A program made the position numbers and the translations under genes. Below the pieces are notes generated by a model. That model was not told the DNA's origin. It did not search any database and was given only the letters and a program-made list of their open reading frames with translations. From Gammaproteobacteria bacterium (lineage in GTDB: Bacteria; Pseudomonadota; Gammaproteobacteria; Francisellales; CACEW01): a stretch of DNA of 64,000 nucleotides. Positions 2,406-50,754 of the stretch are shown one piece after another (within the stretch, counting starts at the first letter, position 1; every line of letters starts with the position of its first letter). The DNA is taken from positions 397,866-461,865 of the forward strand of contig JAUSAW010000002.1 of NCBI GenBank assembly GCA_030652335.1, written 5' to 3'.

Positions 2406-4565
2406 ATGTATAGCTCACCAGCCCCTGTTATGTATAACTTAAAAGCCCCTGAAGGCTCATTTCAAAATCCGCATGTACTTACCATCCCCTATGATGAAGT
2501 TACGCCACCTCTCATGCTTAAACTATATAACTCATTCACCCACATAAGTTGGGGGGGATGGGGCAGCCCAGATTATAAATATGAACACGTCGTTTTAAAA
2601 TTAAATGCTGATCTATTAAAAGCCTTACTAGCAACTACCGAAATTAAAGGGCTGCAAAAAGATTGGTTAACATTTGTTCTGGATGGCATAAAACGAAGCC
2701 CGATTAAGACTCTTAGGGTCGACGCTTCTGGCATTAAATTTAAATCCACTTCAACGGCTGAAGCAGGAGCTGGGGCAAGCTCTCATTTAGTCAAGGCTTC
2801 CACTGCTACATTCAGTTCTCCTTCATCGACTCGAACCAGAGCAAGCGTAACCTCCCCTTCACCAACCTCAACACTTACTACCGAGGATTTCAAAACTTTT
2901 ATTGATTCCCTTGATACCGTTAATAGGGAACCATCCGTTTACCCTGTATTAGCAAGCTTAGATATTAGCAACTGTAACTTAACTCCAGACGATTTACTTT
3001 ATGCTGTAAGCAATTGCCTCTCTAGCTTCTACAGGGCCCTTGGGAATAAGGGAAATCCTAGCGCTAGCACATTCAAAACTCCTGAGATAGTAAACCGTGA
3101 ACTGCTGGTCTTTCAAGTGCCCGCCCTCATAGAAAATGAACCTACAACCCCCTCAGAAGAACGGAAAAAATTCACGACTTCTACAACAGACTCAACCACT
3201 ATAATCCCCTCTAAAATTTACGAAAATCCCTTTGTGCCTATAGTAACCAGTCACGGATATCCACCCTTTAAATACATTGGCGTAGTTTTTATCGATGAAA
3301 GCACCTATAACGAGGCCATGAAGCCTAAACCAATCTATCCAAGAGATTCTATGGGGAATTTTAGCATCGTTGCATGCAATACAATTAAATCTTCGGGCCC
3401 CATCCTAACCAAGGAACATATCCTATTATTGATCTCTCAATATACTCGACCGGACCCCAGAAACACACCAGAAGAAACCTTGCTGCTAGCAAAGTTTCAA
3501 GACGAAGCGCGTATACGAGCGGATAAACCTGCATTAATGGAAAGTCATAAAAAAATATTGGAAGAAAAAACCAAAGCAGAGAAAATCGCCAAAAAAACAG
3601 ATACATTAGTCGAGACTGTCAAGTCTGCATTGGAAAATGCTAAATCAAAAAAACGCCGGGACCTAACAAACGAAGAAATTGACCAAGTTTATCTTAAGCT
3701 TTCTAGAGCCTGTGTTTTTAATACTCTTAATGAAACATGGGTGCCAAGAGCACTAAAACTCACAATAGAGGCAGCAGTGACAAGAGCGAAACTTGCTGAA
3801 ACTAGTGCCATTGAGAGCGCCAATGAGACGGCAGCAGAAGCAAGGCGAAATGATGCCGCCAAATTGCGTAAAGCCGAAAAAGCTAGATTTGAGAGCCAAA
3901 AGATCGAAGAGATTAGAAGAAATCTTATAACACCCCCAGCCAAAAGCTCGGCTGCAACTATGATTGACAAGTCAACTACTGAGACTTCATCACCTAAGCT
4001 TGCCCCTAAAGCTGCCCCAGCGCCAACTCCCGCCAGCCCTTCTGTCGAGAGCCCTGTTGTGGCTCAAGCTCATTATGGATCATTTGGACAAGCAACAGGA
4101 GCTACTGTAGGCTCCGGCTTGGGGCCTACTTTGCCTGGCGCTGCACCAAAACCTACATTACCTGATCAATCTAAAGCCGGTGGAATTGCAAGCGTAATCC
4201 GCAAGCTGCCAAGGATAGAAGCTAATGAAGCATCGAAGCCACTATTAGAAGAGCAGCGTGCTGCTAAGCAAACCTCTGCAGGAGCAGGCACGGGCGCAGC
4301 CAAAGTGAAGGATGCCGCGCAGCCTAGACGACCTCGATTAAATTTTGATATCATCGCTACTGATGATTATGGGAATCCAATACTTGATGCCAAAGGGAAT
4401 CCAGTGAAATTAGTACCTCTTACCTGCCCAACGTCTTTCTATGATAAACATACTGGCGGTTTATGCTTTCCTGGCTGCTGCCCACTTGAGCCAGAATATC
4501 AAGAGGCTCTACGCTATAAATCAACTGCGGAAGATGATGCTGCAACGGGCGCCTCTAAAGGCTAA
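2406..4565 (+). CDS. large orphan protein (719 aa) with S/T/P/A-rich linkers and a central K/E/A-rich coiled-coil-like region; effector-like
   Basis: Long ORF with RBS aaaggaatcatattATG and a terminator directly downstream. Composition is eukaryote-like: STSTAEAGAGASS..SPSSTRTRASVTSPSPTSTL, the KKILEEKTKAEKIAKK..AEARRNDAAKLRKAEKARFESQKIEE block, and a PKAAPAPTPASPS tract. The C-terminus is Cys-rich (LTCPTSF..GGLCFPGCCPLEPE). Confidence 0.7.
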   Translation: MYSSPAPVMYNLKAPEGSFQNPHVLTIPYDEVTPPLMLKLYNSFTHISWGGWGSPDYKYEHVVLKLNADLLKALLATTEIKGLQKDWLTFVLDGIKRSPIKTLRVDASGIKFKSTSTAEAGAGASSHLVKASTATFSSPSSTRTRASVTSPSPTSTLTTEDFKTFIDSLDTVNREPSVYPVLASLDISNCNLTPDDLLYAVSNCLSSFYRALGNKGNPSASTFKTPEIVNRELLVFQVPALIENEPTTPSEERKKFTTSTTDSTTIIPSKIYENPFVPIVTSHGYPPFKYIGVVFIDESTYNEAMKPKPIYPRDSMGNFSIVACNTIKSSGPILTKEHILLLISQYTRPDPRNTPEETLLLAKFQDEARIRADKPALMESHKKILEEKTKAEKIAKKTDTLVETVKSALENAKSKKRRDLTNEEIDQVYLKLSRACVFNTLNETWVPRALKLTIEAAVTRAKLAETSAIESANETAAEARRNDAAKLRKAEKARFESQKIEEIRRNLITPPAKSSAATMIDKSTTETSSPKLAPKAAPAPTPASPSVESPVVAQAHYGSFGQATGATVGSGLGPTLPGAAPKPTLPDQSKAGGIASVIRKLPRIEANEASKPLLEEQRAAKQTSAGAGTGAAKVKDAAQPRRPRLNFDIIATDDYGNPILDAKGNPVKLVPLTCPTSFYDKHTGGLCFPGCCPLEPEYQEALRYKSTAEDDAATGASKG

Positions 4566-6173: not shown

Positions 6174-7859
6174 TTAAGAGTAAGCATTTTCATCCTCAGG
6201 CAAGGCTCTATAATCGTTAGGCGAAGCCAATGGTGAAGCGATATTAAGCACCACTGCATTCGCAGTCCTAGCATTCTGCGATAAGGGCACGTCGCTAATC
6301 ATTTCAATTACAGGGGGACTGATCACAGCCAGGCCACTAGTCGATGAAGTTTGGCGATGATGAAATGGCAGGCGAGGAGAAGGTAGTTCGACCGTTCTTT
6401 CAACAGAGTTTGCTTGGACGTCTAATAATGCCTGATTAACTATTTCATGAACCACTTCGGGGCGATCTTCTTCAGGGGCCTCTGATATTTTTACTAATCT
6501 ATCATGTAAACTATCAATCGCTGATTTAAACACATTGACATGATTATTACGCATTTCAATATTATATTGATTCCATACCCCAAGAACGACGGCCGCTAAA
6601 ATAAATACAGCTAAATATATCCTCTCTTTACTCTCTGGATTAGCTAAAGGATCCCCAGGTAATGTTGCTCTATAAATATTATTCATGGTCATCGCTTCAA
6701 ATATAGAGGATGCAATGCCCCATATAATTTTTGTCCAAAACTCCCTAGTGTTTGGTAGCGTACGCTCCCCATAGCCTAAACTACCCTCTGGCGGACATTT
6801 TGGTAAGCCTATTAATAGGCTTGGGTCCCTCACGGCGAGGTCATGATATAATTTCCTATAATCGAGAATTACCGGATCAATTTGAATTTGATAATTAAGT
6901 TCGGATAGAATAGCGCCAGCGGCATAGGCAAGGCAGATGAGAGCACCCACGCCCCACATAAAGCCTTTAAATAGCGCGCATTCCGAATCAATCCCGGCCC
7001 TATTTAATACAAACATAGTCCAATAAAGACCCATTGCTAACCCACCCATGGCACCTAATATACCAGGGATGATCAATCGCGATTTCGCAACCTTAGACTT
7101 TGGCAACCCTTTATAGTATTTCAACCTTTGATTCGGTACCACAGGATGACGGATTCGTATAGATCTAACTAAGGCCTCTTGTGAAAGATAGGATACAAAA
7201 CCAATGCCAAAAAATGCCGCATAGCAGCCTAATTGGATAGTGGGTTGAACTCCTAATCGATTATGGTCAACAAAAACAATGAAATCTGCTAAAGTGCCCG
7301 CAGCAAAAGTGGCATCTAATACTGGATGAAGCAATGCCGCCCATTGTTTTATAGTCAACGCGGTGCCTACATTTTTAAGCCAACCTTGATTATTTTTACA
7401 TTTTTTAATAAGCTGCAGTACGTCATAAATCTTCCCTTCTTCATCTGAGCCCGTTTGCAAATAAACGCTAGATAATGGAGAAGTAGCAATCGTTTCAACC
7501 AAGCTTGAAGGGGCCGGGTGACGAGACTGTTTAAAAACATAGGCTCCATAGGCAACTGTTGTAAACCCTGTTAGAACGGAGAGCATAATTTTTGCAAATG
7601 GTGGTAGGTTCTTAGGATTTAGACCCGCAAATATAACCACCAAGGAGTTTAAATAGGATTGGGCAAAACCAAAACCTGCAGTAGAAGCCAGCCTTGACGT
7701 GCTGGCAAACATATAAGTATGTCGCAGAGCATGATATGTCTTATCCCTACTTAGGAAGTACTGCCAGCGGCTTAATTCGACCAAACCAATTTTAGCGTTT
7801 GCACCCTCATGTGCCTGCGCTACAGTGATATACTTACTACGTGAAAAACAAGATCCCAT
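6174..7859 (-). CDS. orphan multi-pass membrane protein (561 aa) with an N-terminal MGSCFS motif; effector-like
   Basis: ATG at 7859 is preceded by ggaagaggtgcataATG (RBS). There are several hydrophobic helices and a polar C-terminal tail ending ..SPNDYRALPEDENAYS. No recognisable family. Confidence 0.7.
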   Translation of the reverse strand: MGSCFSRSKYITVAQAHEGANAKIGLVELSRWQYFLSRDKTYHALRHTYMFASTSRLASTAGFGFAQSYLNSLVVIFAGLNPKNLPPFAKIMLSVLTGFTTVAYGAYVFKQSRHPAPSSLVETIATSPLSSVYLQTGSDEEGKIYDVLQLIKKCKNNQGWLKNVGTALTIKQWAALLHPVLDATFAAGTLADFIVFVDHNRLGVQPTIQLGCYAAFFGIGFVSYLSQEALVRSIRIRHPVVPNQRLKYYKGLPKSKVAKSRLIIPGILGAMGGLAMGLYWTMFVLNRAGIDSECALFKGFMWGVGALICLAYAAGAILSELNYQIQIDPVILDYRKLYHDLAVRDPSLLIGLPKCPPEGSLGYGERTLPNTREFWTKIIWGIASSIFEAMTMNNIYRATLPGDPLANPESKERIYLAVFILAAVVLGVWNQYNIEMRNNHVNVFKSAIDSLHDRLVKISEAPEEDRPEVVHEIVNQALLDVQANSVERTVELPSPRLPFHHRQTSSTSGLAVISPPVIEMISDVPLSQNARTANAVVLNIASPLASPNDYRALPEDENAYS

Positions 7860-18296: not shown

Positions 18297-19910
18297 TTAT
18301 ACATAACCCAGGGCAGCCCCATTCTTGGCCAATAGCCCCAGCTCTAAATCAGGACGATTAAAGACGAAGGCTTGGCTAGGTTTTTCTACAGAAGCTTCCC
18401 TTAATACGACAATTTCTGCAATGAACTCGGCGAAGGTATCTTTATCTAAACCACCTTCTGCTAACTGTGCTTCTAAGTTATCTAGAGTATTGCTAAAGCA
18501 TATCACCCTAGGATCAGTAGGATCGCATTCCTTTAGCCAGCCTACTAAAGCCTTTAACTTCCTATACTCTCCTGCGCTAAAACCGGTGCTTAAGTCAACG
18601 CTATGCTCTTTAATAACCGGGCTCTCTGGCAGCGAGGCCTGATCAGTCGTGCTAGAACCAAAGGCATAGCAAATCGCCTGTTTAGCAGGAACATAGACTG
18701 TTTCAAAGAGTTTTTCTAAAGCCCAGGAATTGACGTTAATAGCCATAACGGATAAAAAATAGGTTTGTAAAAAAACGATTAGAGCTGGCGGTGCTTCATC
18801 CTCAGCATCTCCAGCCTTGGCCCTTTCCACACTTGAGGAATAGGCTAAATAAGCACCTACAACAACAAATACATATTTTGCAATATACTTTACTAAAGAA
18901 TGGTCCTTATCTTTATCGGTAAAAAAACCATCCTCGCCTTTGAGTGCTTTACCACCACGAACAAAAGGATCGACCAGATATAAGAGACCGTCCAACAAAT
19001 AACCCGAATAATTTATACAAGCGGTAATATTAAGGGCCGCAGAGCCTAAAGGAATTCTATCCACCACGGTATTTGATACTAACCAGCTATATAATGGATT
19101 ACCCACTAAAAAGCGCTGAGTTGAATCGGCCATGGTTAAGGCATAGGCAAAACAAATAAAACTAAATGATGAGACTAAACCAATGCTTCGTGCAGTAGAG
19201 ACCGGTTTTTTATAAGCAGCCAGTTCTTTGCCTTCAAGAGCATCGAAGGCGCATATAGCAGGATGATCTGCCCCGGCAATAATAGCGCTTATTTTTTTAT
19301 CTTCTAAGCAAAGCTGCGCCAAGCCGTTTGCCAGCAAATCGAAACTAGCATGTGTTAAAAAAGCCCCTTCTGTAACAACGGTAGCCCAGGTAAAAACTTG
19401 TGAAACCGCGCCACCTTCATCACAGCCTAGCAAATCCTTAAGCGCTACTTGCGTACCTTCTCCAAAAGGCCCTGCCTGCGCATAGCCAAAATATAATGCT
19501 AAGGGCAATAGTAGCAACAGGCCTGAGATATTTTCTTTCCAGTTCTCACGCCCAAGCCTGCCAAAGCTTTTGGTGCTTTTAACCGCGCGAATAATTAAAC
19601 TATCAAGAGAACCTCCCAATATGGCATTTAAGCTCCCCGATATGATCGCGCCAGGCCAGGCTAAATAAATAGGATTCTTATTGCCCTCTAAAGTTTGCAG
19701 AACATAACTACCAAAAAATATACTTTTGACTAGGAAACTTAAGATATTGGCTGTTATTTTTTGGGCCTGTCCTGGCACTCTCGCCCCGCTAAGTGCTGCC
19801 AATAGAATAGTTTGTTGATCTTTAGGCAAGATTTTTACAAGGGTAGATAATTGAGACACAATAGTCCCATCGATACGTCCATTTAACATGATATTTCTCC
19901 GAATAGGCAA
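18297..19910 (-). CDS. orphan polytopic membrane protein (about 530 aa); effector-like
   Basis: The track start is TTG at 19910. An in-frame ATG at 19889 (MLNGRIDG..) is the more likely start. Several TM helices, and a soluble C-terminal region (..LKECDPTDPRVICFSNTLDNLEAQLAEGG..). No recognisable family. Confidence 0.65.
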   Translation of the reverse strand: MPIRRNIMLNGRIDGTIVSQLSTLVKILPKDQQTILLAALSGARVPGQAQKITANILSFLVKSIFFGSYVLQTLEGNKNPIYLAWPGAIISGSLNAILGGSLDSLIIRAVKSTKSFGRLGRENWKENISGLLLLLPLALYFGYAQAGPFGEGTQVALKDLLGCDEGGAVSQVFTWATVVTEGAFLTHASFDLLANGLAQLCLEDKKISAIIAGADHPAICAFDALEGKELAAYKKPVSTARSIGLVSSFSFICFAYALTMADSTQRFLVGNPLYSWLVSNTVVDRIPLGSAALNITACINYSGYLLDGLLYLVDPFVRGGKALKGEDGFFTDKDKDHSLVKYIAKYVFVVVGAYLAYSSSVERAKAGDAEDEAPPALIVFLQTYFLSVMAINVNSWALEKLFETVYVPAKQAICYAFGSSTTDQASLPESPVIKEHSVDLSTGFSAGEYRKLKALVGWLKECDPTDPRVICFSNTLDNLEAQLAEGGLDKDTFAEFIAEIVVLREASVEKPSQAFVFNRPDLELGLLAKNGAALGYV

Positions 19911-33346: not shown

Positions 33347-33433
33347 GCCGGGGTGGCGGAATTGGTAGACGCGCTAGTTTCAGGTACTAGTGGGGGTAAC
33401 CCCGCGGAGGTTCGAGTCCTCTCTCCGGCACCA
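33347..33433 (+). tRNA. tRNA-Leu (anticodon CAG), class II with a long variable arm and encoded CCA
   Basis: GCCGGGGTGGCGGAATTGGTAGACGCGCTAGTTTCAGGTACTAGTGGGGGTAACCCCGCGGAGGTTCGAGTCCTCTCTCCGGCACCA. The acceptor stem pairs GCCGGGG with CTCCGGC, with one mismatch. The anticodon loop is TTCAGGT and the T-loop is GGTTCGAGTCC. It is very similar to E. coli tRNA-Leu(CAG). Confidence 0.95.
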
Positions 33434-33650: not shown

Positions 33651-34628
33651 CTATCTAGGATGAGCTTCTTTCCATGCATTCATGGCCGCAAGACGCCTAT
33701 CAAAAGCTAGGGTTTTTATTGTGGTCACAGCGGCCTCAGCGTGAGTGCTGGCAGGATTATTTTCAATAGCCCTAAGCGCAACGCGAAAAGCTTCCATCTT
33801 AACTTCACGGTCATCCGCTCCATGCCTTGCTAGGAATAGAACCGCAGAGGCATGCCCATACTTGAACGCCCCATGGATAAGACTTTTCGCAAAGTCGGCT
33901 CTTTCATCATTGGTCAGCACAGAGCTGGATATTAACAATCGAGCCATCTTATTAACGTTTCCTGTAATAGCGGCATAAGATAAGGCACTATCACCATTAT
34001 TTAAGAGGTATGCCCCATCACCGAATATCTTTTCGTAGAAATACTGCTTCGATCTCCTTGGCGATTCAGCTAATTCTTTTACCACAGCGTGATGCCCGGC
34101 TAATGCGGCTAGATCCAAAGGAGTTAAGCCAGCATCATTTTTAATCGTGCGGGATACACACAAAAGAATCATCGCCTTTACAAAGTCTAAATGGCCATTT
34201 TGAGCGGCGACGTGCAATAAGGTATTACCCAAATTATCAGTAGCGCTGCAATAGGCTCTTTTATGGTAAACTCGGCTAATATCACCATCAAAATAGGCTA
34301 CTGCATCTGATTGCCCAGTCTCAGCAAAATAATGCCATGCAGTTTTACCGCTCGAGTCTCTTAAAATAGTTGGGTCAATAATAATATTCGCATATGGACC
34401 AATACTCCGTTTTGGCGTTAAAAGATAAGCCATTTCGAAATCACCAAGTCTAGCTGCAAGATGTACAGGATACATGCCTTCACCTATATCGGTCGTTAAT
34501 AATTCGTATGCTGTAACATCATCATTTGTCATGCCTTGTCCTAGCCTCTCCAAAATAAATCTAGCCCTTGGAATTGCGTGACCTTCAATTGCAGTAATTA
34601 ATTGTGCCAAGTTCGGATTTGCATGCAT
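33651..34628 (-). CDS. ankyrin-repeat protein (about 6 repeats)
   Basis: 325 aa. Repeats include YPVHLAARLGDFEMAYLL, GNTLLHVAAQNGHLDFVKAMILL, GLTPLDLAALAGHHAVVKELA, GDSALSYAAITGNVNKMARLL and ..GHASAVLFLARHGADD. Confidence 0.9.
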   Translation of the reverse strand: MHANPNLAQLITAIEGHAIPRARFILERLGQGMTNDDVTAYELLTTDIGEGMYPVHLAARLGDFEMAYLLTPKRSIGPYANIIIDPTILRDSSGKTAWHYFAETGQSDAVAYFDGDISRVYHKRAYCSATDNLGNTLLHVAAQNGHLDFVKAMILLCVSRTIKNDAGLTPLDLAALAGHHAVVKELAESPRRSKQYFYEKIFGDGAYLLNNGDSALSYAAITGNVNKMARLLISSSVLTNDERADFAKSLIHGAFKYGHASAVLFLARHGADDREVKMEAFRVALRAIENNPASTHAEAAVTTIKTLAFDRRLAAMNAWKEAHPR

Positions 34629-42283: not shown

Positions 42284-42520
42284 TTAGTCTTCTTGTTCTT
42301 GACCGTGATAATTAATGCCGCGTGACGGAACGATTGTTGAAATGGCATGTTTATAAACCATTTGATTGACGCCATTATTGCAAAGGACGACTACAAATGA
42401 ATCGTAGGATTCAATATTGCCTTGCAGCTTAATGCCGTTGACGAGATAAATGGAAACTGGTACATGCTCTTTACGCAGCACGTTTAAGAATGGATCTTGT
42501 AATATCGCGCCTTTAGACAT
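42284..42520 (-). CDS. hfq: RNA chaperone Hfq
   Basis: 78 aa with Sm1/Sm2 motifs: [46 protein letters not shown]. Confidence 0.95.
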
Positions 42521-42646
42521 GTGTAAACCCTCATATTGTTATTATTTTAACCTTGGGGGCAAGGCTGTTTTACCCGCTGAAAACTAGCAAGTAGGTCAGT
42601 GTAGCAGTATTATTATTTAATCTCAATGTGGGATTATTGGGCGGAT

Positions 42647-42922
42647 TTAATGCTTGTAAATTTCTCGACGATGTCCAACAGTAATGACTAATATCAATAA
42701 CTCTTTATTTTTGATTTCACAGATTATGCGGTAATCGCCAACTCGATAACGCCATAAGCCGGATTTAGTCCCTACCAGAGGTTTTCCCATGGTTTTTGGG
42801 TTATGCCTAATTGCCAATCGCTCTTTTAAGTATTTTAAAATTTGATTTTGTACATGCGGATTTAGCTTTAAGAGATCTTCTAGCGCCTCACTATCAAATT
42901 TTATTTCCCAATTTCCTAACAC
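42647..42922 (-). CDS. RelE/ParE-superfamily type II toxin
   Basis: 91 aa. WEIKFDSEALEDLLKLNPHVQNQILKYL...GLWRYRVGDYRIICEIKNKELLILVITVGHRREIY is the classic RelE/StbE pattern. GTG start, overlapping the antitoxin stop. Confidence 0.85.
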   Translation of the reverse strand: MLGNWEIKFDSEALEDLLKLNPHVQNQILKYLKERLAIRHNPKTMGKPLVGTKSGLWRYRVGDYRIICEIKNKELLILVITVGHRREIYKH

Positions 42923-43115
42923 GCTTCTCCACCTCGTCTAAAGATATTTTAGGATTATTCTTTTCAAGCCTTGCAATGGCTATTAGGTAATCTTCTTGGT
43001 CTTCTAAATATTTCTCCAATGCTTTTTTGGCATAATAAGTTTTGGTACGGCCCGTGAATTCTGCTAAATTTTCGAGGCGCAACTCAAGTTCTTTGGGTAA
43101 ACGTAGGGTTAGCAT
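42894..43115 (-). CDS. ribbon-helix-helix (CopG/RelB-like) antitoxin
   Basis: MLTLRLPKELELRLENLAEFTGRTKTYYAKKALEKYLEDQEDY.. is an RHH fold signature. The likely start is ATG 43115, since the track start at 43151 adds an implausible MYYKSYIYREKK. It is upstream of and overlaps the toxin. Confidence 0.8.
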   Translation of the reverse strand: MLTLRLPKELELRLENLAEFTGRTKTYYAKKALEKYLEDQEDYLIAIARLEKNNPKISLDEVEKRVRKLGNKI

Positions 43116-43293
43116 TTTTTTCTCTCGATATATGTATGACTTGTAATACATATATTACAAATAAAGCGCTTTAAAGTCCAACCTTGTTTAGCATTAACCA
43201 TTGTATATAATTTAATCCATTCAAAAAAGATCATCATTCACCAGGCATAAAAAAAGGCCCTATTCAGGCCCTTCATATTTCAATTTAAAATAA

Positions 43294-44049
43294 CTAAGCG
43301 TGATCAGCAACAGCTGAAGACTCACTTGCCATCATACTACAACCCTTCAAAAACACCGTGGCATTTCCTATGTTTGAGATGGTAGCTTGAGTTGCATTTT
43401 TTAATGCAAGACTAGCTTGCACCGGACCGGTTTCTACATAGGCTCCAGCTGGACTATAACGCGGCGCAGGACCTACTGCCCATACGGACGTTCCAAAGGT
43501 ATGTCCCGCTACAAATGAAGGCGAATCAGAACTTACATCGCAAATTGCATCACAAAGCAGTCCAAAATCAACTCTGGCACAAGCGCCGGGGACAATACTG
43601 GTAAAATCACTAGCAGGTGCATCAAAGCAATCCCCTTCATAGGCATTACTAACTGGAGGTTTGTTTTCATCCCCATCTCTAACACAAACGATTACAACAT
43701 CACGACTACGCACATTAGGATATACCGCTTCGTCAGTGATAGAAAATGAGGTTAGAGGAAAGTCATTATAATAACCTCCAACGATTCCTCCACCTAAATA
43801 ATTTGTAGGAATAGCCATCGTGATTGACATATTGGTAATGGGGTTAGTAGCAGTTACAGTCAGATTGGCAGCGGTATAGAACTGGTTCCGATCATCTACT
43901 TCAGCCGTTTGACATGCAATGCTTCCACCAAAGTCAGCAGTCCATGCCGCTCCATTAGCCGGAATTCGGTGCAAAGTGCTAAATGCTTGACCTGTAGCAG
44001 GGCTCAGTAGACTTGCGATAGCTACTGCTAATGATTTAAATGTTGGCAT
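43294..44049 (-). CDS. secreted Cys-rich orphan protein, paralog 1 (251 aa)
   Basis: Signal peptide MPTFKSLAVAIASLLSPATGQA, RBS aggagaaaattATG, 8 Cys. It shares blocks with paralog 2 (NPITN.S, AYEGDC, VSSDS.S.VAGHT.G.S, ..SN.G...V...GC). Confidence 0.8.
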   Translation of the reverse strand: MPTFKSLAVAIASLLSPATGQAFSTLHRIPANGAAWTADFGGSIACQTAEVDDRNQFYTAANLTVTATNPITNMSITMAIPTNYLGGGIVGGYYNDFPLTSFSITDEAVYPNVRSRDVVIVCVRDGDENKPPVSNAYEGDCFDAPASDFTSIVPGACARVDFGLLCDAICDVSSDSPSFVAGHTFGTSVWAVGPAPRYSPAGAYVETGPVQASLALKNATQATISNIGNATVFLKGCSMMASESSAVADHA

Positions 44050-44079
44050 AATTTTCTCCTAAGGTTAAGTAACCCATCT

Positions 44080-44112
44080 ATATTAAGGGGTAAACCTTAA
44101 GGTTTTATTAAG
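44080..44112 (-). promoter_or_regulatory. PmrA-like promoter, site B: TTAA-N7-TTAA-N11-TAATAT
   Basis: Minus strand cTTAATAAAACCTTAAG (44112..44096), with TTAA halves at 44111..44108 and 44100..44097. After 11 nt comes the -10 hexamer TAATAT at 44085..44080, about 30 nt before the ATG at 44049. Confidence 0.65.
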
Positions 44113-44241
44113 AAAATCCATTATTTAAGATTTTTATAGCTTTATCAACAAACTAGCACCAATCACCAGGCATAAAAAAGGCCCATAAGAAAGCGTTTTT
44201 ACACACTCTCCTCGGAGCCCTTTATATAGTAATTCAAATAA

Positions 44242-45003
44242 CTAAGCTGGATGAACGCTAGTTGCAGACGCTTCTGATAATGGTTTGCAACCACCAAACA
44301 CTACCGCGACAGCACCGAGGTTTGAGACAGTGCCCTGAGTAACATTTAACAGTGGCAGGCTGGCGCCAGCGGGAGTTGCATCAGCATATGTGCCTAGTGG
44401 AACAAGTTGCCATGAAAATGGCGGTGGCACTAGCGATGCTCCAACAGTATGGCCCGCCACCAATGAAGATGAATCTGAACTTACAGCACAAGTCATATTG
44501 CTTTCTGTAGAATTGCTAAAGTGCAGCCTAATACAATCACCAGGAGCTATGACAGTAGTATCATCATATGCTGCATCGACACAATCCCCTTCATAGGCCC
44601 AAATTTCTGGCGTTTGTTGCTGCTTTCCATTTGGTGCACAAGCTATCAATGCACTGCGGCTCGCCACTCCAGGGTAAATTCCAGTATCATTAATAGAATA
44701 AGATGTGTAAGGCAGCTCAGGCGCATAAAAGCTTTCAGCATAAGCGCCTGCAGGACCGAAGGACAGTGGCATAGGGTCAGAAACATTAGTAATAGGATTA
44801 TAAATATTAATGTTTAAATTAATAAACGGAGCGCTTAAGCTGCGATCGTCTTCTTCAGCAATTAAGCAATTGTTAGAGCCTCCAAAAACAACGGTTAAGG
44901 TTCCATTATTGGCTTGAACTCGATGTATGGTGTTATAAACTTGGCCCAGGGCAGTGGCTATGAGGCTTGCCGTGGCGGTTAACAAACTTGCGATTCTTGG
45001 CAT
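44242..45003 (-). CDS. secreted Cys-rich orphan protein, paralog 2 (253 aa)
   Basis: Signal peptide MPRIASLLTATASLIATALGQ, RBS aggagtaatttATG. Colinear similarity to paralog 1, including conserved Cys positions. Confidence 0.8.
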   Translation of the reverse strand: MPRIASLLTATASLIATALGQVYNTIHRVQANNGTLTVVFGGSNNCLIAEEDDRSLSAPFINLNINIYNPITNVSDPMPLSFGPAGAYAESFYAPELPYTSYSINDTGIYPGVASRSALIACAPNGKQQQTPEIWAYEGDCVDAAYDDTTVIAPGDCIRLHFSNSTESNMTCAVSSDSSSLVAGHTVGASLVPPPFSWQLVPLGTYADATPAGASLPLLNVTQGTVSNLGAVAVVFGGCKPLSEASATSVHPA

Positions 45004-45032
45004 AAATTACTCCTTATGTTAAGTGCATGACT

Positions 45033-45065
45033 ATAATAACGACCAAATCTTAAGGTTTTATTAAG
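45033..45065 (-). promoter_or_regulatory. PmrA-like promoter, site A: TTAA-N7-TTAA-N11-TATTAT
   Basis: Minus strand cTTAATAAAACCTTAAG (45065..45049), then 11 nt, then TATTAT (45038..45033). The distal half-site overlaps the miaA stop codon (45061..45063). Confidence 0.65.
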
Positions 45066-45987
45066 AGATAATATTACTTAAGGCTTTTTTCGCTTTATCG
45101 ACTAAATCAGCATCATCGCTGTCCAGCCAGATCAAATCAGGCCAGGCTCTTAGCCAGGTGAACTGGCGTTTGGCTAATTGACGAGTAGCGACGATGGATT
45201 TTTCGATGGCCTCATCGAGGCTTAATTCGCCGTTTAAATACTGACAAACCTGGCGATAACCCACACAGCGAATGGAGGGTAATTTGTCAGTGAGATCACC
45301 CCGCTCTTGTAATTCTTTTACTTCATCAATAAAACCCTGGCTCATCATTAGCTTAAATCGTTCGGCGATTCTGGCATGTAAAATTTTGCGATCTTTTGGG
45401 GCTATGGCGAGAGCAATAATGGGATAAGGCAAAGGCTCCATTCCTGGGACCCATAATACAGATAAGGGGATGCCTGTTAACTCATAGACTTCTAAGGCAC
45501 GCTGAATTCTCTGCGAGTCTGTCGGCTTTATTTTAGCCACCGCATCGGGGTCGATACTTGCTAAACGCTGATGTAAGGCGGGCCAGCCTTGAACATTCGC
45601 CTCTTCCAATAATCTCTGGCGTATAGTCTCATCGGCTTTAGGTAATTCAGACAAGCCCTTACGCAAGGCATTAAAATAGAGCATTGTGCCGCCGACTAAT
45701 AAGGGGATCCGGTCTTTAGACAAACTGCTTTCGATTTCGCGCCTGGCATCATGATAAAAATCCGCCACCGAATAGGACTCAGCAGGGTCTTTTATATCGA
45801 TTAGTTTATGCGGGAATTCTTGTAATATTTCAGCAGAAGGCTTTGCCGTGCCGATTTCCATGCCTTTATAGATCATCGCCGAATCGACGCTAATAATATC
45901 GATGGGATAAAGCTTGGCTAATTCCATGGCTAATGCGGTTTTGCCGCTGGCGGTTGGGCCCATTAAAAAGATGACTGTATTCGTCAT
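45061..45987 (-). CDS. miaA: tRNA dimethylallyltransferase
   Basis: 308 aa with P-loop GPTASGKT, in the canonical position after mutL. Confidence 0.95.
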   Translation of the reverse strand: MTNTVIFLMGPTASGKTALAMELAKLYPIDIISVDSAMIYKGMEIGTAKPSAEILQEFPHKLIDIKDPAESYSVADFYHDARREIESSLSKDRIPLLVGGTMLYFNALRKGLSELPKADETIRQRLLEEANVQGWPALHQRLASIDPDAVAKIKPTDSQRIQRALEVYELTGIPLSVLWVPGMEPLPYPIIALAIAPKDRKILHARIAERFKLMMSQGFIDEVKELQERGDLTDKLPSIRCVGYRQVCQYLNGELSLDEAIEKSIVATRQLAKRQFTWLRAWPDLIWLDSDDADLVDKAKKALSNIIS

Positions 45988-46071: not shown

Positions 46072-47847
46072 TTATCTGCCCCTCAAAAACAAACTATCCA
46101 ATTCTTTCATGGAGAGCTTAGTCCATGTTGGGCGCCCGTGATTACACTGGTCGATTCTGGGGGTAATTTCCATATCGCGCAGTAAGGCATTCATTTCCAT
46201 TATAGATAGTTGATGATGGGCTTGTATGGCGCCTTTACAGGCGACACTACCCAATATGGTATCGATATAATCCTGAGTTTGTTTGGAGTGACCAAGGTTG
46301 ACTAAATCGGCAATCACTTCTCGAATTAATGGCTCGACATCCTTTTGCTTGATAATAGAGGGCACCTGGCGAATGGCTAAACTGTTTTCGCTTAGGATAT
46401 CGATTTCAAATCCAAGCTGCTCAAATACCTCTAAATGTTCTTCGACGTAGGCTTTTTCTTTCACGCTTAAGGAAAGTGTGAAAGGCACCAGTAAGGCCTG
46501 AGCACTTAGGCTTTGCTCCTGCCATTGCCGTTTTAAGCGTTCATACATAATGCGCTCATGAGCAGCATGTTGATCGACGATAATTAAGCCTTCTTTGGTT
46601 TCGGCCAAAATATAAATACCATGCAATTGAGCGATAGCATAACCCATCGGCGGAATATCGTGTTGCACTGGCTTAATGCTTGGAGTAACAACCGGCTCGG
46701 CTTGTAAGGTTTGATATAGCGCAATAGTTTCCTGAACTTGCAGGGGGCTATCAAACTGTTGAGGCTTATAATAGATAGGTGTAGCAGGCTGGACACTGCT
46801 AGGCGTAGGAAATTCTGGCATAGCTAATTCGGCAGCAGGTTGAGGCCTGCTAGCAGCGATAGTTCTATGCAAGGAACTAAAAATAAAATCATGCACCAGG
46901 CGCCCTTCTCGAAATCTTACTTCATGCTTAGTGGGATGCACATTTACATCCACCATGCTAGGCTCGCATTCTAAAAACAATACAAAAACCGGGTGCCTGC
47001 CGCCATATAATACGTCTTGATAAGCCTGACGCACCGCATGCGCGACCAGCTTATCTTTAACGATTCGGCCATTGACATAAAAGTATTGGAGATCGGCTGC
47101 GGAGCGTGAAAAAGTCGGCAACCCCACCCAGCCCCACAGCCTTAAACCGGAGGCTTCGATTTCTATTTTCATAGCATGCTTTAAAAAATCTTTACCGCAA
47201 AATTCGCTAATGCGCTGCTCTTGTTGAAGTTCATTTTGTGCGATAGCCGATTGATATACATTTTTGCCATTATGGCTTAATGAAAACCCCACGTCGAAAT
47301 GCGATAAGGCCATACGTTTAACCACTTCGTCGATATGCGAAAATTCGGTGGATTCTTTCTTTAAAAACTTACGCCTGGCGGGAGTATTAAAAAATAAATC
47401 TTGAATATGGATAGTGGTACCGACTGCATGGGCGGCAGGCTTTAGATCGATGCTTTGATCGCGCCCTTCTACCATAATTTGCCAAGCATGCTCGCTATCG
47501 ACCTGGCGAGAGCTTAAACTGGCTCGAGATACCGAACTAATACTGGCCAAAGCCTCGCCGCGAAAGCCTAGAGTGCCTAAGCTTTCTAATTCATGTAAGG
47601 TATATATTTTACTGGTGGCATGTCGGCTAAAAGCCAGGGGCAGATCGTCATAGTGAATCCCCTTGCCATTATCGGTAATTTTAATACTGCTAAGCCCACC
47701 GCTTTCGATGGCGATATCGATATAAGTCGCCCCGGCATCCAGGCTGTTTTCTAGTAGTTCTTTAACGACCGATGCCGGGCGCTCGACGACTTCGCCGGCT
47801 GCAATCTGATTGGCTAATTGAATGGGAAGTAATTGAATTCGCCGCAT
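46072..47847 (-). CDS. mutL: DNA mismatch repair protein MutL
   Basis: 591 aa with GHKL ATPase motifs (VVERPASVVKELLENSLDAGAT, DNGKGI, GFRGEAL) and a C-terminal dimerisation domain. Confidence 0.95.
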   Translation of the reverse strand: MRRIQLLPIQLANQIAAGEVVERPASVVKELLENSLDAGATYIDIAIESGGLSSIKITDNGKGIHYDDLPLAFSRHATSKIYTLHELESLGTLGFRGEALASISSVSRASLSSRQVDSEHAWQIMVEGRDQSIDLKPAAHAVGTTIHIQDLFFNTPARRKFLKKESTEFSHIDEVVKRMALSHFDVGFSLSHNGKNVYQSAIAQNELQQEQRISEFCGKDFLKHAMKIEIEASGLRLWGWVGLPTFSRSAADLQYFYVNGRIVKDKLVAHAVRQAYQDVLYGGRHPVFVLFLECEPSMVDVNVHPTKHEVRFREGRLVHDFIFSSLHRTIAASRPQPAAELAMPEFPTPSSVQPATPIYYKPQQFDSPLQVQETIALYQTLQAEPVVTPSIKPVQHDIPPMGYAIAQLHGIYILAETKEGLIIVDQHAAHERIMYERLKRQWQEQSLSAQALLVPFTLSLSVKEKAYVEEHLEVFEQLGFEIDILSENSLAIRQVPSIIKQKDVEPLIREVIADLVNLGHSKQTQDYIDTILGSVACKGAIQAHHQLSIMEMNALLRDMEITPRIDQCNHGRPTWTKLSMKELDSLFLRGR

Positions 47848-47906
47848 GGTTTACCCTCGAAAAATACTTATAATAGCATAAATATAATTCGCTATTTTAC
47901 AGTTAT

Positions 47907-47938
47907 TTAATAAAACCTTAAGCTTAATCCAGTATATT
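47907..47938 (+). promoter_or_regulatory. PmrA-like promoter, site C: TTAA-N7-TTAA-N11-TATATT
   Basis: Plus strand TTAATAAAACCTTAAG (47907..47922), an exact 16-mer match to sites A and B. After 11 nt comes TATATT (47933..47938), 35 nt before the ATG at 47974. Confidence 0.7.
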
Positions 47939-47973
47939 ATCCCGACAAGCTTAGTAAATAAGGATATCTAAAA

Positions 47974-49173
47974 ATGTATAATCCCTCTGATTTTTTAACG
48001 CAAAAGAAAATTACTGTAGACTTAGCAGTGGCTTTGAACAATAAAGATAGGTCTAAAATTAACGAAATTTTTCAAACCATTCCAAACTCACGCTCTAACG
48101 TCACATTCAAAGAAGATCGTATTAAACAATGCGTAAAACATGCACTCAAAAACCAATTATTAGACCTACTTCAAAATATGATAGATGATAATATAGTTGA
48201 TCTAGCGAAGCTATATATGGATTTTACCGACTTTTCTTTACCAGGATTATCTGCAGCATTTTTGCTTTCCAAAGAGATTAACAAGTATCAAGCTCAAAAA
48301 ATATTTATTAGCATGCTTACTCAAAAGTTTTTTATTACGGCAGAAACAGCTTTTACAGCATTCCCTTCAGCTATTATAGAAAGCGAAGAATGCTTATATA
48401 CTGCCATATGTTATGATGTGGCCTTGGCTGAAAAACTACTAGCTGCTAGGGCAAAATTTGATCCTAATTCCGCTCGGTCTCAACGAGATTTTTACAGGGC
48501 TGCTTGTAGTGGCAACATTGATACTATGTTATTTTTTTTAGAACATGGTTTTAGTATTGATTCTGTTATCGAAATGGCAGTGACTAACTTCTCACAATCA
48601 TATATACAAGGTTTAGACCCCGATCCGTTTAAGGGCTTAGAAAAAAATAAAAAAGGGATACTGTGTTTAGTGCATGAAGGCGCTGATTTATATAAACAGT
48701 CCTCGGACCCGGCAAACAAATCGGCCTTACAAATATTGCATGGAGCAATAGCTCAACTAAATGCAAGTGATAGATTGTCAAAAGCTAATACGCTAAGTGC
48801 ATTTACCAAAGAATTAATTGTTGAATCTGCAAAAGCCAGACGATCAGCGGCAGTATACACACATTTATACACGAACAAACTTAACTCTACTTTTGATGCT
48901 TATCATAAAATGATAATAAATAATGAAATCAAGGAATTAAAACTCTCTTTAGAATTTTTAAAACCTTATAGCTGGGAAATTGCCGCCTTAGAGGAAGTGC
49001 ATAAATACACCACTGACGCCAACCCTGACGCTGGCAAAATCATTGCAAGCTATTTAAGTCTTCATAAAGCCATTGAAGCCGCCCCAATTGCTGTAACACC
49101 TATGCTCGCAGCTTGTGCTGGAGCAGGCATAACGGCTGAAAGCGAGAAGTGCAAGCAAGCAAGCCTAAATTAA
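47974..49173 (+). CDS. orphan protein (399 aa) with degenerate ankyrin-like repeats; effector-like
   Basis: RBS aaggatatctaaaaATG. Ank-like segments are ECLYTAICYDVALAEKLLAARAKFDPN, RDFYRAACSGNIDTMLFFLEHGFSIDS and ..LCLVHEGADLYKQ. It occupies the slot where amiB sits in enterobacteria. Confidence 0.7.
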   Translation: MYNPSDFLTQKKITVDLAVALNNKDRSKINEIFQTIPNSRSNVTFKEDRIKQCVKHALKNQLLDLLQNMIDDNIVDLAKLYMDFTDFSLPGLSAAFLLSKEINKYQAQKIFISMLTQKFFITAETAFTAFPSAIIESEECLYTAICYDVALAEKLLAARAKFDPNSARSQRDFYRAACSGNIDTMLFFLEHGFSIDSVIEMAVTNFSQSYIQGLDPDPFKGLEKNKKGILCLVHEGADLYKQSSDPANKSALQILHGAIAQLNASDRLSKANTLSAFTKELIVESAKARRSAAVYTHLYTNKLNSTFDAYHKMIINNEIKELKLSLEFLKPYSWEIAALEEVHKYTTDANPDAGKIIASYLSLHKAIEAAPIAVTPMLAACAGAGITAESEKCKQASLN

Positions 49174-49655: not shown

Positions 49656-50006
49656 TTAATGAGCGGGCTTAAATCCTTCCATTTCTTCGTCAGATAAGCC
49701 GGTCGCTTCTTTTACTACAGCATAACTGATGCCTTTTGCTAGCAAATTTTTAGCAATAGCACAGGCTTTCTCATATTCGCCTTGCTGCATACCTTGTAGC
49801 ATGCCTTGCCGCATACCTTTCTGGACGCCCCATTGTTCGATCTGTTCTGCAATAGTCACCGCTTCACTCCTATATTCTGTCTGTTGCTTGATTACTTCTA
49901 GTATACCAGCAACATCCTGGCTTTCGCCCTCTGAGAGCATGTATTTTATCACATCGATCGCCAAATCGCGACTGACGGTAATTATGTCATTCCCGCCTTC
50001 GCGCAC
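49656..50006 (-). pseudogene. C-terminal remnant of an Rpn/YhgA-like (PD-(D/E)XK) recombination-promoting nuclease / putative transposase
   Basis: ..AVTIAEQIEQWGVQKGMRQGMLQGMQQGEYEKACAIAKNLLAKGISYAVVKEATGLSDEEMEGF is the characteristic Rpn C-terminal module. The nuclease domain is absent. The apparent GTG start lies inside the inverted repeat of the adjacent element. Confidence 0.6.
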
Positions 50007-50665
50007 TAGTGTCCGGTATAAAAGTAAATGGTTAGCGTTATGGGAGTGGTGGGAGGCGATACTAGTTTAACAAATTTGTACGCTTTACGGTTGATATAAT
50101 TCAGAGAGTAATTTCATCTGATCAGTACACATAGCTTTACGTATTCTGATCATCATAGACCTTGCTGTTGGGCGCCGTAGACGTAAGGCTCTTGAGGCTT
50201 GGCAAGATGACAAGCTCTTTTTAGCAATCATCATCAAAGTCATCAACATAAACCATTTTTGAAGTTCAATATGTGAATGATGAAATATTGTACCAACTGT
50301 TACGCTAAAAGATTTACGACAGCCGTTGCAATGGTGTCGTAATTCTGCTGCAAGTGGATTAGTGTTTTCACTTTCACAATAAGGGCATTGGGGAGTATTA
50401 CCCCATCTTCGCTTCTCTAGGTATTTACTGCATTTTTCTTGAGTTGGAAATTTTTGACTTAGCTCTCGAAAATCCATGCTAATTCCTCATAGATTATAAA
50501 CTTCTATGAATATTCTAACAATCTTAACTACTATATCAACCTTAAAGCGTACAAATTTGTTAAATTAGTATCGCCTCCCACCATTCACATAATGCTAACC
50601 ATGCCAATAAAAAAAACGGAAGCATCTCAGTTATACCGGACACTAGTGCGTCTTCGCGGGAATGA
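49987..50665. mobile_element. decayed IS1595-type element (679 bp) bounded by imperfect inverted repeats of about 100-130 bp
   Basis: The left arm (49987..50090) matches the reverse complement of the right arm (50540..50665). The inner 60 nt are 55/60 identical (ccgtaaagcgtacaaatttgttaaactagtatcgcctccc..). The outer block ttataccggacactagtgcg..cgggaatga is shared, with a 22-nt size difference between the arms in the mismatched segment. The element encloses the truncated transposase ORF. Confidence 0.7.
50085..50477 (-). pseudogene. IS1595-family transposase, N-terminal Zn-ribbon/HTH part only (130 aa; DDE domain missing)
   Basis: FPTQEKCSKYLEKRRWGNTPQCPYCES...HHCNGCRKSFSVTVGTIFHHSHIELQKWF matches the Zn_Tnp_IS1595 domain. 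No DDE catalytic region follows. Confidence 0.75.
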
Positions 50666-50754
50666 AAAAACTAACTCGACCCTCATGTTTTACATTGCTT
50701 TTCTCAACTAAACCCGTTTAAATAGAGCACTTGTTAAATGAGTATGAATGGATT

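Follow-up and report, generated by a model that had tools for sequence, protein, structure and literature searches.

A variable gene slot between miaA and hfq in a gammaproteobacterium, occupied by a tandem pair of orphan genes and a relBE module

Genes between miaA and hfq

The 64,000 nt stretch of Gammaproteobacteria bacterium contig JAUSAW010000002.1 analysed here (positions 397,866 to 461,865, hereafter the window) carries a mutL-miaA-hfq-hflX-hflK-hflC operon in which four open reading frames (ORFs) separate miaA from hfq. On the minus strand, the order is mutL (46072-47847), miaA, a 253 aa ORF, a 251 aa ORF, an RHH gene, a toxin gene, and hfq, with hflX, hflK, hflC, and purA following downstream of hfq. 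In a preliminary description of this locus, miaA was reported to end at 45061 and hfq to start at 42520, and the gene calls agree with both positions and with the flanking order mutL-miaA-[cargo]-hfq-hflX-hflK-hflC. The RelE/RHH toxin-antitoxin (TA) pair described between the two genes is borne out by matches in Pfam and NCBIfam. Likewise, the two tandem orphan genes described at 43294..45003 were found as ORFs; they are paralogous to one another and have signal-peptide-like N-termini. All four cargo genes are on the minus strand and therefore co-directional with the operon, as had been stated.

45061..45987, minus strand: miaA (PF01715, E 3.5e-85), upstream boundary of the slot; its final ~45 nt are copied by the tandem duplication
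44242..45003, minus strand: paralogue 1, an orphan gene of 253 aa with a signal-peptide-like N-terminus and six conserved Cys
43294..44049, minus strand: paralogue 2, an orphan gene of 251 aa with a signal-peptide-like N-terminus
42894..43115, minus strand: RelB-like RHH antitoxin of 73 aa, alternative ATG at 43151 (NF048017, 72.9 bits, cutoff 50; DUF6290/TraY)
42647..42922, minus strand: RelE/StbE toxin of 91 aa, starting with GTG and sharing its first 29 nt with the antitoxin gene
42284..42520, minus strand: hfq (PF17209, E 3.8e-30)

Taken together, the evidence makes it probable that, in this clade of uncultured gammaproteobacteria, the miaA-hfq junction serves as a gene-content hotspot without an integrase, set within the mutL-miaA-hfq operon and delimited by the miaA stop codon and the hfq promoter, and that in the window it holds an old layer of orphan genes and a younger relBE module next to a self-promoted hfq.

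Content of the slot in related genomes

The junction was compared with that of relatives (numbered with the prefix L) in which MiaA is 77-81 % identical and the concatenated core proteins are 77-80 % identical to those of the window. L013 was left out, since its sequence over 14 kb is that of the window (100 % identity) and it is thus the same genome. The slot is empty in L011 and L012, with ~115 bp and ~175 bp between the called genes, respectively. In L005, it holds a single gene of 254 aa (P0003, L005 3492-4256), a homologue of the orphan genes, and no TA pair. In L001, L006, and L007, it is occupied by a gene for a 718 aa Ala/Glu-repeat protein and a convergent outer-membrane β-barrel (OMP_b-brl) gene, and in L014 by a convergent GDSL lipase gene. 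Across the clade, the cargo ranges from 0 to 3.5 kb of unrelated genes. In the outgroups (Shewanella, an Orbaceae bacterium, and Zhongshania), only ~125-270 bp lie between the aligned miaA end and the hfq start. Due to these differing contents and the contiguous outgroup junctions, the content of the slot is considered accessory, as had been proposed: the genes of the window are not common to all relatives, which show either an empty junction or different cargo according to lineage.

Three independent assemblies of one lineage (L008-L010) contain the start of a gene resembling that of the 718 aa repeat protein, after which the contig ends. The contigs of L008 (9960-10113) and L009 (7155-7308) stop ~40 nt into this gene and that of L010 (6906-7205) ~190 nt into it. 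Assembly was probably defeated after miaA by repetitive or strain-variable sequence. In L001, ~460 nt of non-coding sequence (6180-6640) lie between the β-barrel gene and hfq, in which, by eye, there seem to be internally similar segments (ccccgat...tcgaggat...). The 718 aa protein of L001 was rejected as a relative of the paralogues (hhalign probability 0.2 %). A metagenome scan with MiaA gave no confirmed locus, and a scan with the DNA pattern of the hfq leader gave one more empty-site locus, L012.

There is no integrase or recombinase among the four cargo ORFs and no tRNA target at the slot, the sole tRNA of the window being at 33347. No flanking direct repeats are present, the direct repeats found being those of the internal tandem duplication only, and a plasmid DNA search with the whole island gave no match.

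An orphan Cys-rich protein family

Paralogues 1 and 2 are 42 % identical over their full length (E 2e-58), and both N-termini are hydrophobic and, by inspection, end in A-x-G|Q. Neither has a match in Pfam (even at E ≤ 10), in NCBIfam, or in a PDB sequence profile search, and, for this family, a word-index search across 5.8 billion proteins gave nothing other than the query itself. Among 1.84 billion cluster representatives, a HMMER profile search identified one true relative (E 3.9e-12), P0003, which is the gene between miaA and hfq of L005; a weak profile match to an SLH/Ig-repeat protein was regarded as spurious. Exact-sequence look-up found no record of the window Hfq or of paralogue 1.

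In the alignment of paralogue 1, paralogue 2, and P0003, six Cys are invariant. All three proteins are ~250 aa in length, have a hydrophobic N-terminus and the motifs EDDR, DC, PGxC, and SN(L/I)G, and are encoded between miaA and hfq. Identity within the family is 25-27 % between the window and L005 genomes, versus ~78 % for the neighbouring core proteins. On the basis of these searches, the three genes appear to represent a newly recognised protein family, found only at the miaA-hfq slot in the databases searched. As a working guess, the orphan proteins may be Sec-exported, disulfide-bonded, fast-evolving envelope or extracellular proteins that are co-regulated with other lineage-specific genes.

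The numbers of N-x-S/T sequons in paralogue 1, paralogue 2, and P0003 are 6, 4, and 5 (shuffle P = 0.04, 0.16, and 0.02), a marginal excess that was dropped as evidence on account of these P values; two sequon positions are common to both paralogues. Foldseek comparison against the PDB returned assorted two-domain β-sandwich proteins, including botulinum HA70 and the SIDT1 ectodomain, with a template modelling (TM) score ≤ 0.31 and a root-mean-square deviation of 13-28 Å, and these matches are not taken as evidence.

Tandem duplication in place

The unit that has been duplicated is ~950 bp and runs from inside the miaA tail to the terminator of the gene. Repeat D1 pairs 44078-44152 with 45031-45105 (75 nt, 76 % identity), the latter segment taking in the end of miaA (~45 nt) with its stop codon.

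44106..44152, minus strand: non-coding relic of the miaA 3′ end, from the alignment of repeat D1

The tail of MiaA in the window (DLVDKAKKAL) resembles that of L012 (DVLQRAKSYI) and is therefore regarded as native. Since the unit includes the miaA tail, the segment before paralogue 2 is a relic of it and the duplication took place at this locus.

Between the paralogues, 37 % of the four-fold sites in conserved codons are identical. The synonymous divergence (dS) of ~2.1 is saturated and the non-synonymous divergence (dN) is 0.55, giving a rough dN/dS of ~0.26. This ratio and the conserved Cys pattern together argue that the two copies are genuine genes, both kept by purifying selection. Even though synonymous sites are saturated, the two units share 74-75 % identity in the ~100 nt upstream and in the terminator region. 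By the substitution estimates, the duplication is ancient.

Terminators, hfq promoter, and hfq leader

44174..44223, minus strand: intrinsic terminator of paralogue 1, a long G+C-rich hairpin then U6 (-30 kcal/mol, z = -5.9)
43249..43274, minus strand: intrinsic terminator of paralogue 2, a 9-bp GGGCC stem then U7
42598..42626, minus strand: hfq σ70-type promoter, TTGAGA-17-TACACT, from a promoter scan; downstream boundary of the slot
42521..42597, minus strand: hfq leader, with a variable hairpin, a near-invariant hairpin AGCCTTG-CCCC-CAAGGCT, the A-rich AUAAUAACAA, and a ribosome-binding site

It had been proposed that the inserted genes uncouple hfq from its upstream promoters. This is upheld to the extent that two intrinsic terminators, presumably efficient ones, lie between miaA and hfq. 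A cost of this to hfq is not upheld, as the gene has a σ70-type promoter of its own that is kept in relatives. This promoter, TTGAGA-17-TACACT, is predicted at 42626-42598, within the 42521..42646 interval in which the preliminary description had suggested looking for one, and its -35 begins 20 nt after the toxin stop codon. Similarity to the relatives resumes just upstream of the -35, and therefore the slot ends there. Whatever the cargo, the window, L005 (4300-4409), L001 (6520-6639), L011 (9960-10072), and L012 have kept this promoter and leader. Because the promoter is kept with or without cargo, hfq is predicted to be self-sufficient in the clade, and with its own promoter the gene is not obviously uncoupled by the cargo from anything it needs.

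Within the leader, the first hairpin is variable, with three covarying pairs, and the second has 7 bp and a CCCC loop. No match to the leader was found in Rfam. The A-rich AUAAUAACAA reads as A-R-N triplets and could be an Hfq distal-face autoregulatory site (cf. E. coli hfq autoregulation).

PmrA-box-like promoters

45033..45065, minus strand: paralogue 1 promoter, CTTAAT-AAAAC-CTTAAG, 10 nt, TATTAT; the upstream hexamer holds the miaA stop codon
44080..44112, minus strand: paralogue 2 promoter, CTTAAT-AAAAC-CTTAAG (44096-112), 10 nt, TAATAT
Facing 47974-49173 (plus strand), an AT-rich orphan gene of 399 aa: third box, TTTAAT-AAAAC-CTTAAG-N10-TATATT
59978-60127: divergent pair of boxes, facing Pfam-less orphan genes at 59166-59948 (minus strand) and 60158-60751 (plus strand)

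The element previously called promoter site A, which was said to overlap the miaA stop codon, is present at 45049-65 as CTTAATAAAACCTTAAG, with the stop codon TAA inside its upstream hexamer CTTAAT. Five matches to the pattern YTTAAK-N5-CTTAAG-N10-TAnnnT lie in the window, versus 0.00 expected (100 shuffles). All five boxes are upstream of, and facing, Pfam-less orphan genes, and the gap between box and TAnnnT is exactly 10 nt at 5/5 sites.

The pmra-box has been described as two XTTAAY hexamers that are 5 nt apart and overlap the -35 element, the Klebsiella pbgP box being CTTAAT/CCTAAG (PMC10570014). The PmrA of Legionella and Coxiella activates Dot/Icm genes along with the genes of many effectors (PMC6989116, PMC4117601). 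The paralogue boxes have the two hexamers and the 5-nt gap of this definition, which is the enterobacterial one and not the Legionella/Coxiella consensus, and at the five sites the box appears to take the place of the -35 at a fixed distance from the -10. Based on this match in layout, promoter site A is taken to be a promoter that depends on an activator and belongs to a PmrA-like regulon, and the orphan genes may be regulated by a PmrA-like protein.

The 399 aa orphan (region 47906-49173, plus strand) has a G+C content (GC) of 0.362 and a G+C content at third codon positions (GC3) of 0.288, and it is located between mutL and tsaE, on the opposite strand. In L005, L006, L011, and L012, tsaE and mutL are adjacent; this gene is therefore a second lineage-specific insertion in the neighbourhood of the operon.

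The toxin-antitoxin pair

43141..43160, minus strand: palindrome TTGTAATA-tatg-TATTACAA, perfect 8+8, unique in the window, overlapping a -10-like TAATAT

The toxin matches TIGR02385 RelE_StbE over residues 6-89 of 91 (39.5 bits, cutoff 27.9), PF05016 (58.6 bits, cutoff 23, E 9e-16), and PDB 2khe (E 8e-23). It aligns over its full length with E. coli RelE (4v7k, HMMER; dyR/gyR, hRR/kRe, iY/vY), and has R, R, and Y at the positions aligned to RelE R61, R81, and Y87. The catalytic residues of E. coli RelE were reportedly established by Neubauer and colleagues in 2009. Both TA genes are full-length by sequence, and toxin-antitoxin activity would be expected of them. The palindrome is probably the RelB operator.

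A look at composition across the whole insert had been suggested. The TA genes have a low GC of 0.355-0.369, versus 0.430 ± 0.026 for the backbone (z = -2.3 and -2.8), but the paralogues are backbone-like in overall GC (z = +0.8 and +1.1), though low in GC3. None of the relatives whose slot was read as far as hfq has the TA pair there. Homologues of the toxin are present on 967 plasmid records, with an RHH, DUF6290, or TraY gene annotated alongside in most of the matches listed, and the best plasmid match (51 % identity) is on a Legionella antarctica plasmid. Together, these comparisons make the TA pair look like a recent addition. There is no terminator between relBE and the hfq promoter, and therefore relBE transcripts could run into hfq. 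The suggestion that the TA pair stabilises the island is speculation.

Origin of the slot content

From the observed gene content, homology, synteny, duplication boundaries, motif statistics, and promoter conservation, we infer the direction of the evolutionary events. In the favoured history, the older layer would be a gene confined to the clade, encoding an all-β protein that is Sec-exported and probably disulfide-bonded. This Cys-rich gene would have been at the slot already when the window and L005 lineages split, or would have been exchanged by recombination through the conserved flanks. It would then have been duplicated in tandem in place, from the miaA tail to the terminator, with both copies kept under purifying selection while diverging fast. 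Each paralogue would be an independent transcription unit, with a PmrA-type direct repeat replacing the -35 and an intrinsic terminator at its end. In the recent layer, a mobile relBE with its own candidate promoter and operator palindrome would have entered the space that separates the second terminator from the hfq promoter. It is likely that hfq is transcribed mainly from its own conserved promoter, with the terminators insulating it from transcription of miaA and of the cargo, and that only relBE transcripts could read into it.

A number of observations weigh against this history. The neighbour-joining tree of MutL, MiaA, Hfq, HflX, and HflK is nearly a star, in which the empty-site L011 groups with the window (90 % bootstrap with five genes, 57 % with two) and L005 is outside. 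Due to this grouping, vertical descent needs at least one loss (L011) and one replacement (the L001 group). The paralogues are low in GC3 (z = -1.6 and -2.5), the TA genes deviate only modestly in composition, and the dN/dS of the paralogues is unreliable given the saturated dS. Neither P0003 nor any other cargo gene of the relatives, for which sequence is limited, was found to be preceded by a PmrA-like box with a -10. Export of the paralogues is suggested by one feature of the sequence, N-terminal hydrophobicity. The structure model of the paralogue family reached a predicted local distance difference test score (pLDDT) of 30 with two sequences; with three, it is all-β but poor (pLDDT 53.7, predicted TM score 0.50).

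Independent capture of the Cys-rich genes by the window and L005, for instance if DNA that had been taken up recombined at the homologous miaA and hfq flanks, is a possible origin, although a less probable one. The star-like tree, with the empty-site L011 beside the window, would be explained by it, as would cargo that differs in every lineage, the low family identity in comparison with the core proteins, and a paralogue GC3 below that of the backbone. However, no donor was found among the 1.84 billion representative proteins, the family being known only from the slot in this clade; the promoter appears to belong to a host regulon that includes genes elsewhere in the window; and the duplication is ancient and in place. 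Across the five lineages compared, long residence of the Cys-rich gene in the clade at the slot is favoured, and either vertical descent or lateral exchange of the slot content may have led to its present distribution.

It is unlikely that the box is an RNA element or a remnant of the duplication, rather than a response-regulator site, with the similarity of the flanks resulting from gene conversion between the tandem copies. In keeping with such a reading, AAACCTTAAGGTTT is a perfect 14-nt palindrome from which a small hairpin is possible, another σ70-like promoter (TTGATA-17-AATAAT) is present upstream of the box for paralogue 2, and tandem repeats are prone to gene conversion. The same layout is nevertheless present at three unlinked, non-duplicate orphan genes, where the direct repeat and spacing are kept but the palindrome is not, and the occurrence of five copies where 0.00 are expected also argues for a regulatory site.

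Least likely of all, and improbable, is the single recent 2.4-kb island of the preliminary description, in which secreted genes and TA pair were inserted together, cut hfq off, and were kept by the addiction module: the contiguous junction in the outgroups and in L011 and L012, the shared direction of the four genes and the operon, the terminators between miaA and hfq, and the full-length TA pair are all consistent with it, but it is largely refuted by the L005 slot, which has a homologue of the secreted genes without a TA pair, and is further contradicted by the miaA tail within the duplication unit, from which the second copy arose in place, by the saturated dS between the copies, by the backbone-like overall GC of the paralogues, low overall GC being confined to the TA part, by the lack of an integrase, tRNA, or flanking direct repeat, and by an hfq promoter that is conserved whatever the cargo. 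Of the 2.4-kb insertion, what stands is that the content is accessory; what falls is the single event, the secreted genes being apparently old and site-bound and the TA pair alone looking recent.

Other observations in the window

An ankyrin-repeat protein is encoded in the window, and a very large one in L011. Three large Pfam-less ORFs (530-719 aa) and the ankyrin-repeat protein of the window are at 2406-4565, 6174-7859, 18297-19889, and 33651-34628. These would fit a host-associated, effector-rich genome and lifestyle.

Nested inverted repeats are present at 49979-50673, with arms of 71 nt (93 % complementary) at 50028-50098/50532-50602 around a 433-nt core, and outer arms of 43 nt (81 %) at 49979-50021/50631-50673. 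By eye, the core appears to have a short minus-strand ORF with CxxC motifs. This structure is suspected to be the remnant of an insertion sequence or of a miniature inverted-repeat transposable element.

Comparison with known systems

The operon has the same gene order and orientation as the mutL-miaA-hfq-hflX-hflK-hflC superoperon of E. coli and other gammaproteobacteria, in which hfq likewise has its own promoters. In E. coli, the internal promoters of hfq are said, from the work of Tsui and colleagues, to lie within or near miaA. In the clade studied here, by comparison, the predicted hfq promoter is in a short conserved block directly upstream of the gene, and the spacer has turned into a cargo slot. 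No report of cargo between miaA and hfq was found in a literature search. It appears that a junction which is among the most conserved in gammaproteobacterial operons can become a gene-content hotspot and leave hfq undisturbed, since a compact promoter and leader come with the gene itself.

As in other RelBE modules, the antitoxin comes first, the genes overlap, and there is a palindrome at the candidate promoter, and the module itself is ordinary. It differs in its position, 20 nt upstream of the hfq -35 with no terminator between.

The candidate promoters of the orphan genes share with PmrA-dependent promoters (enterobacterial pbgP/ugd/pmrC) the same two hexamers, the 5-nt gap, the replacement of the -35, and a fixed -10. 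The spacing from box to -10 is 10 nt here, versus ~8 nt for pbgP as deduced from the positions given in PMC10570014. As with the PmrA-activated effector genes of Legionella (PMC6989116, PMC4117601), the genes served are orphan and lineage-specific, and the genome has ankyrin-repeat proteins. The orphan family is thereby linked to a candidate PmrA-type regulon of orphan genes and, since such a regulon marks host-interaction genes in Legionella and Coxiella, the motif may be a cheap means of listing candidate effector or secreted genes. Typical Dot/Icm substrates are not known to have signal-peptide-like N-termini, in contrast to the paralogues.

These likenesses can be joined in a wider, rather doubtful reading, according to which the slot would be a dedicated diversification site for secreted proteins that face the host or the environment, and the Cys-rich family would be a new class of exported, disulfide-bonded β-sandwich proteins under a PmrA-like virulence regulon. 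It is equally doubtful that these proteins evolve several-fold faster than the core, with duplication, swap, and loss via the ultra-conserved flanks, and that the relBE promoter couples hfq dosage to TA de-repression under stress, as the same reading would have it.

Variable islets commonly contain TA pairs and orphan genes, and general understanding is unchanged. Like other integrase-less islets, this slot has conserved core flanks, lineage-specific cargo that is enriched in secreted or envelope proteins and a TA pair, and no integrase or tRNA. It differs from them in that the probable hotspot is inside a highly conserved operon, beside the gene for a global RNA chaperone, and in that one protein family is seemingly exclusive to the slot.

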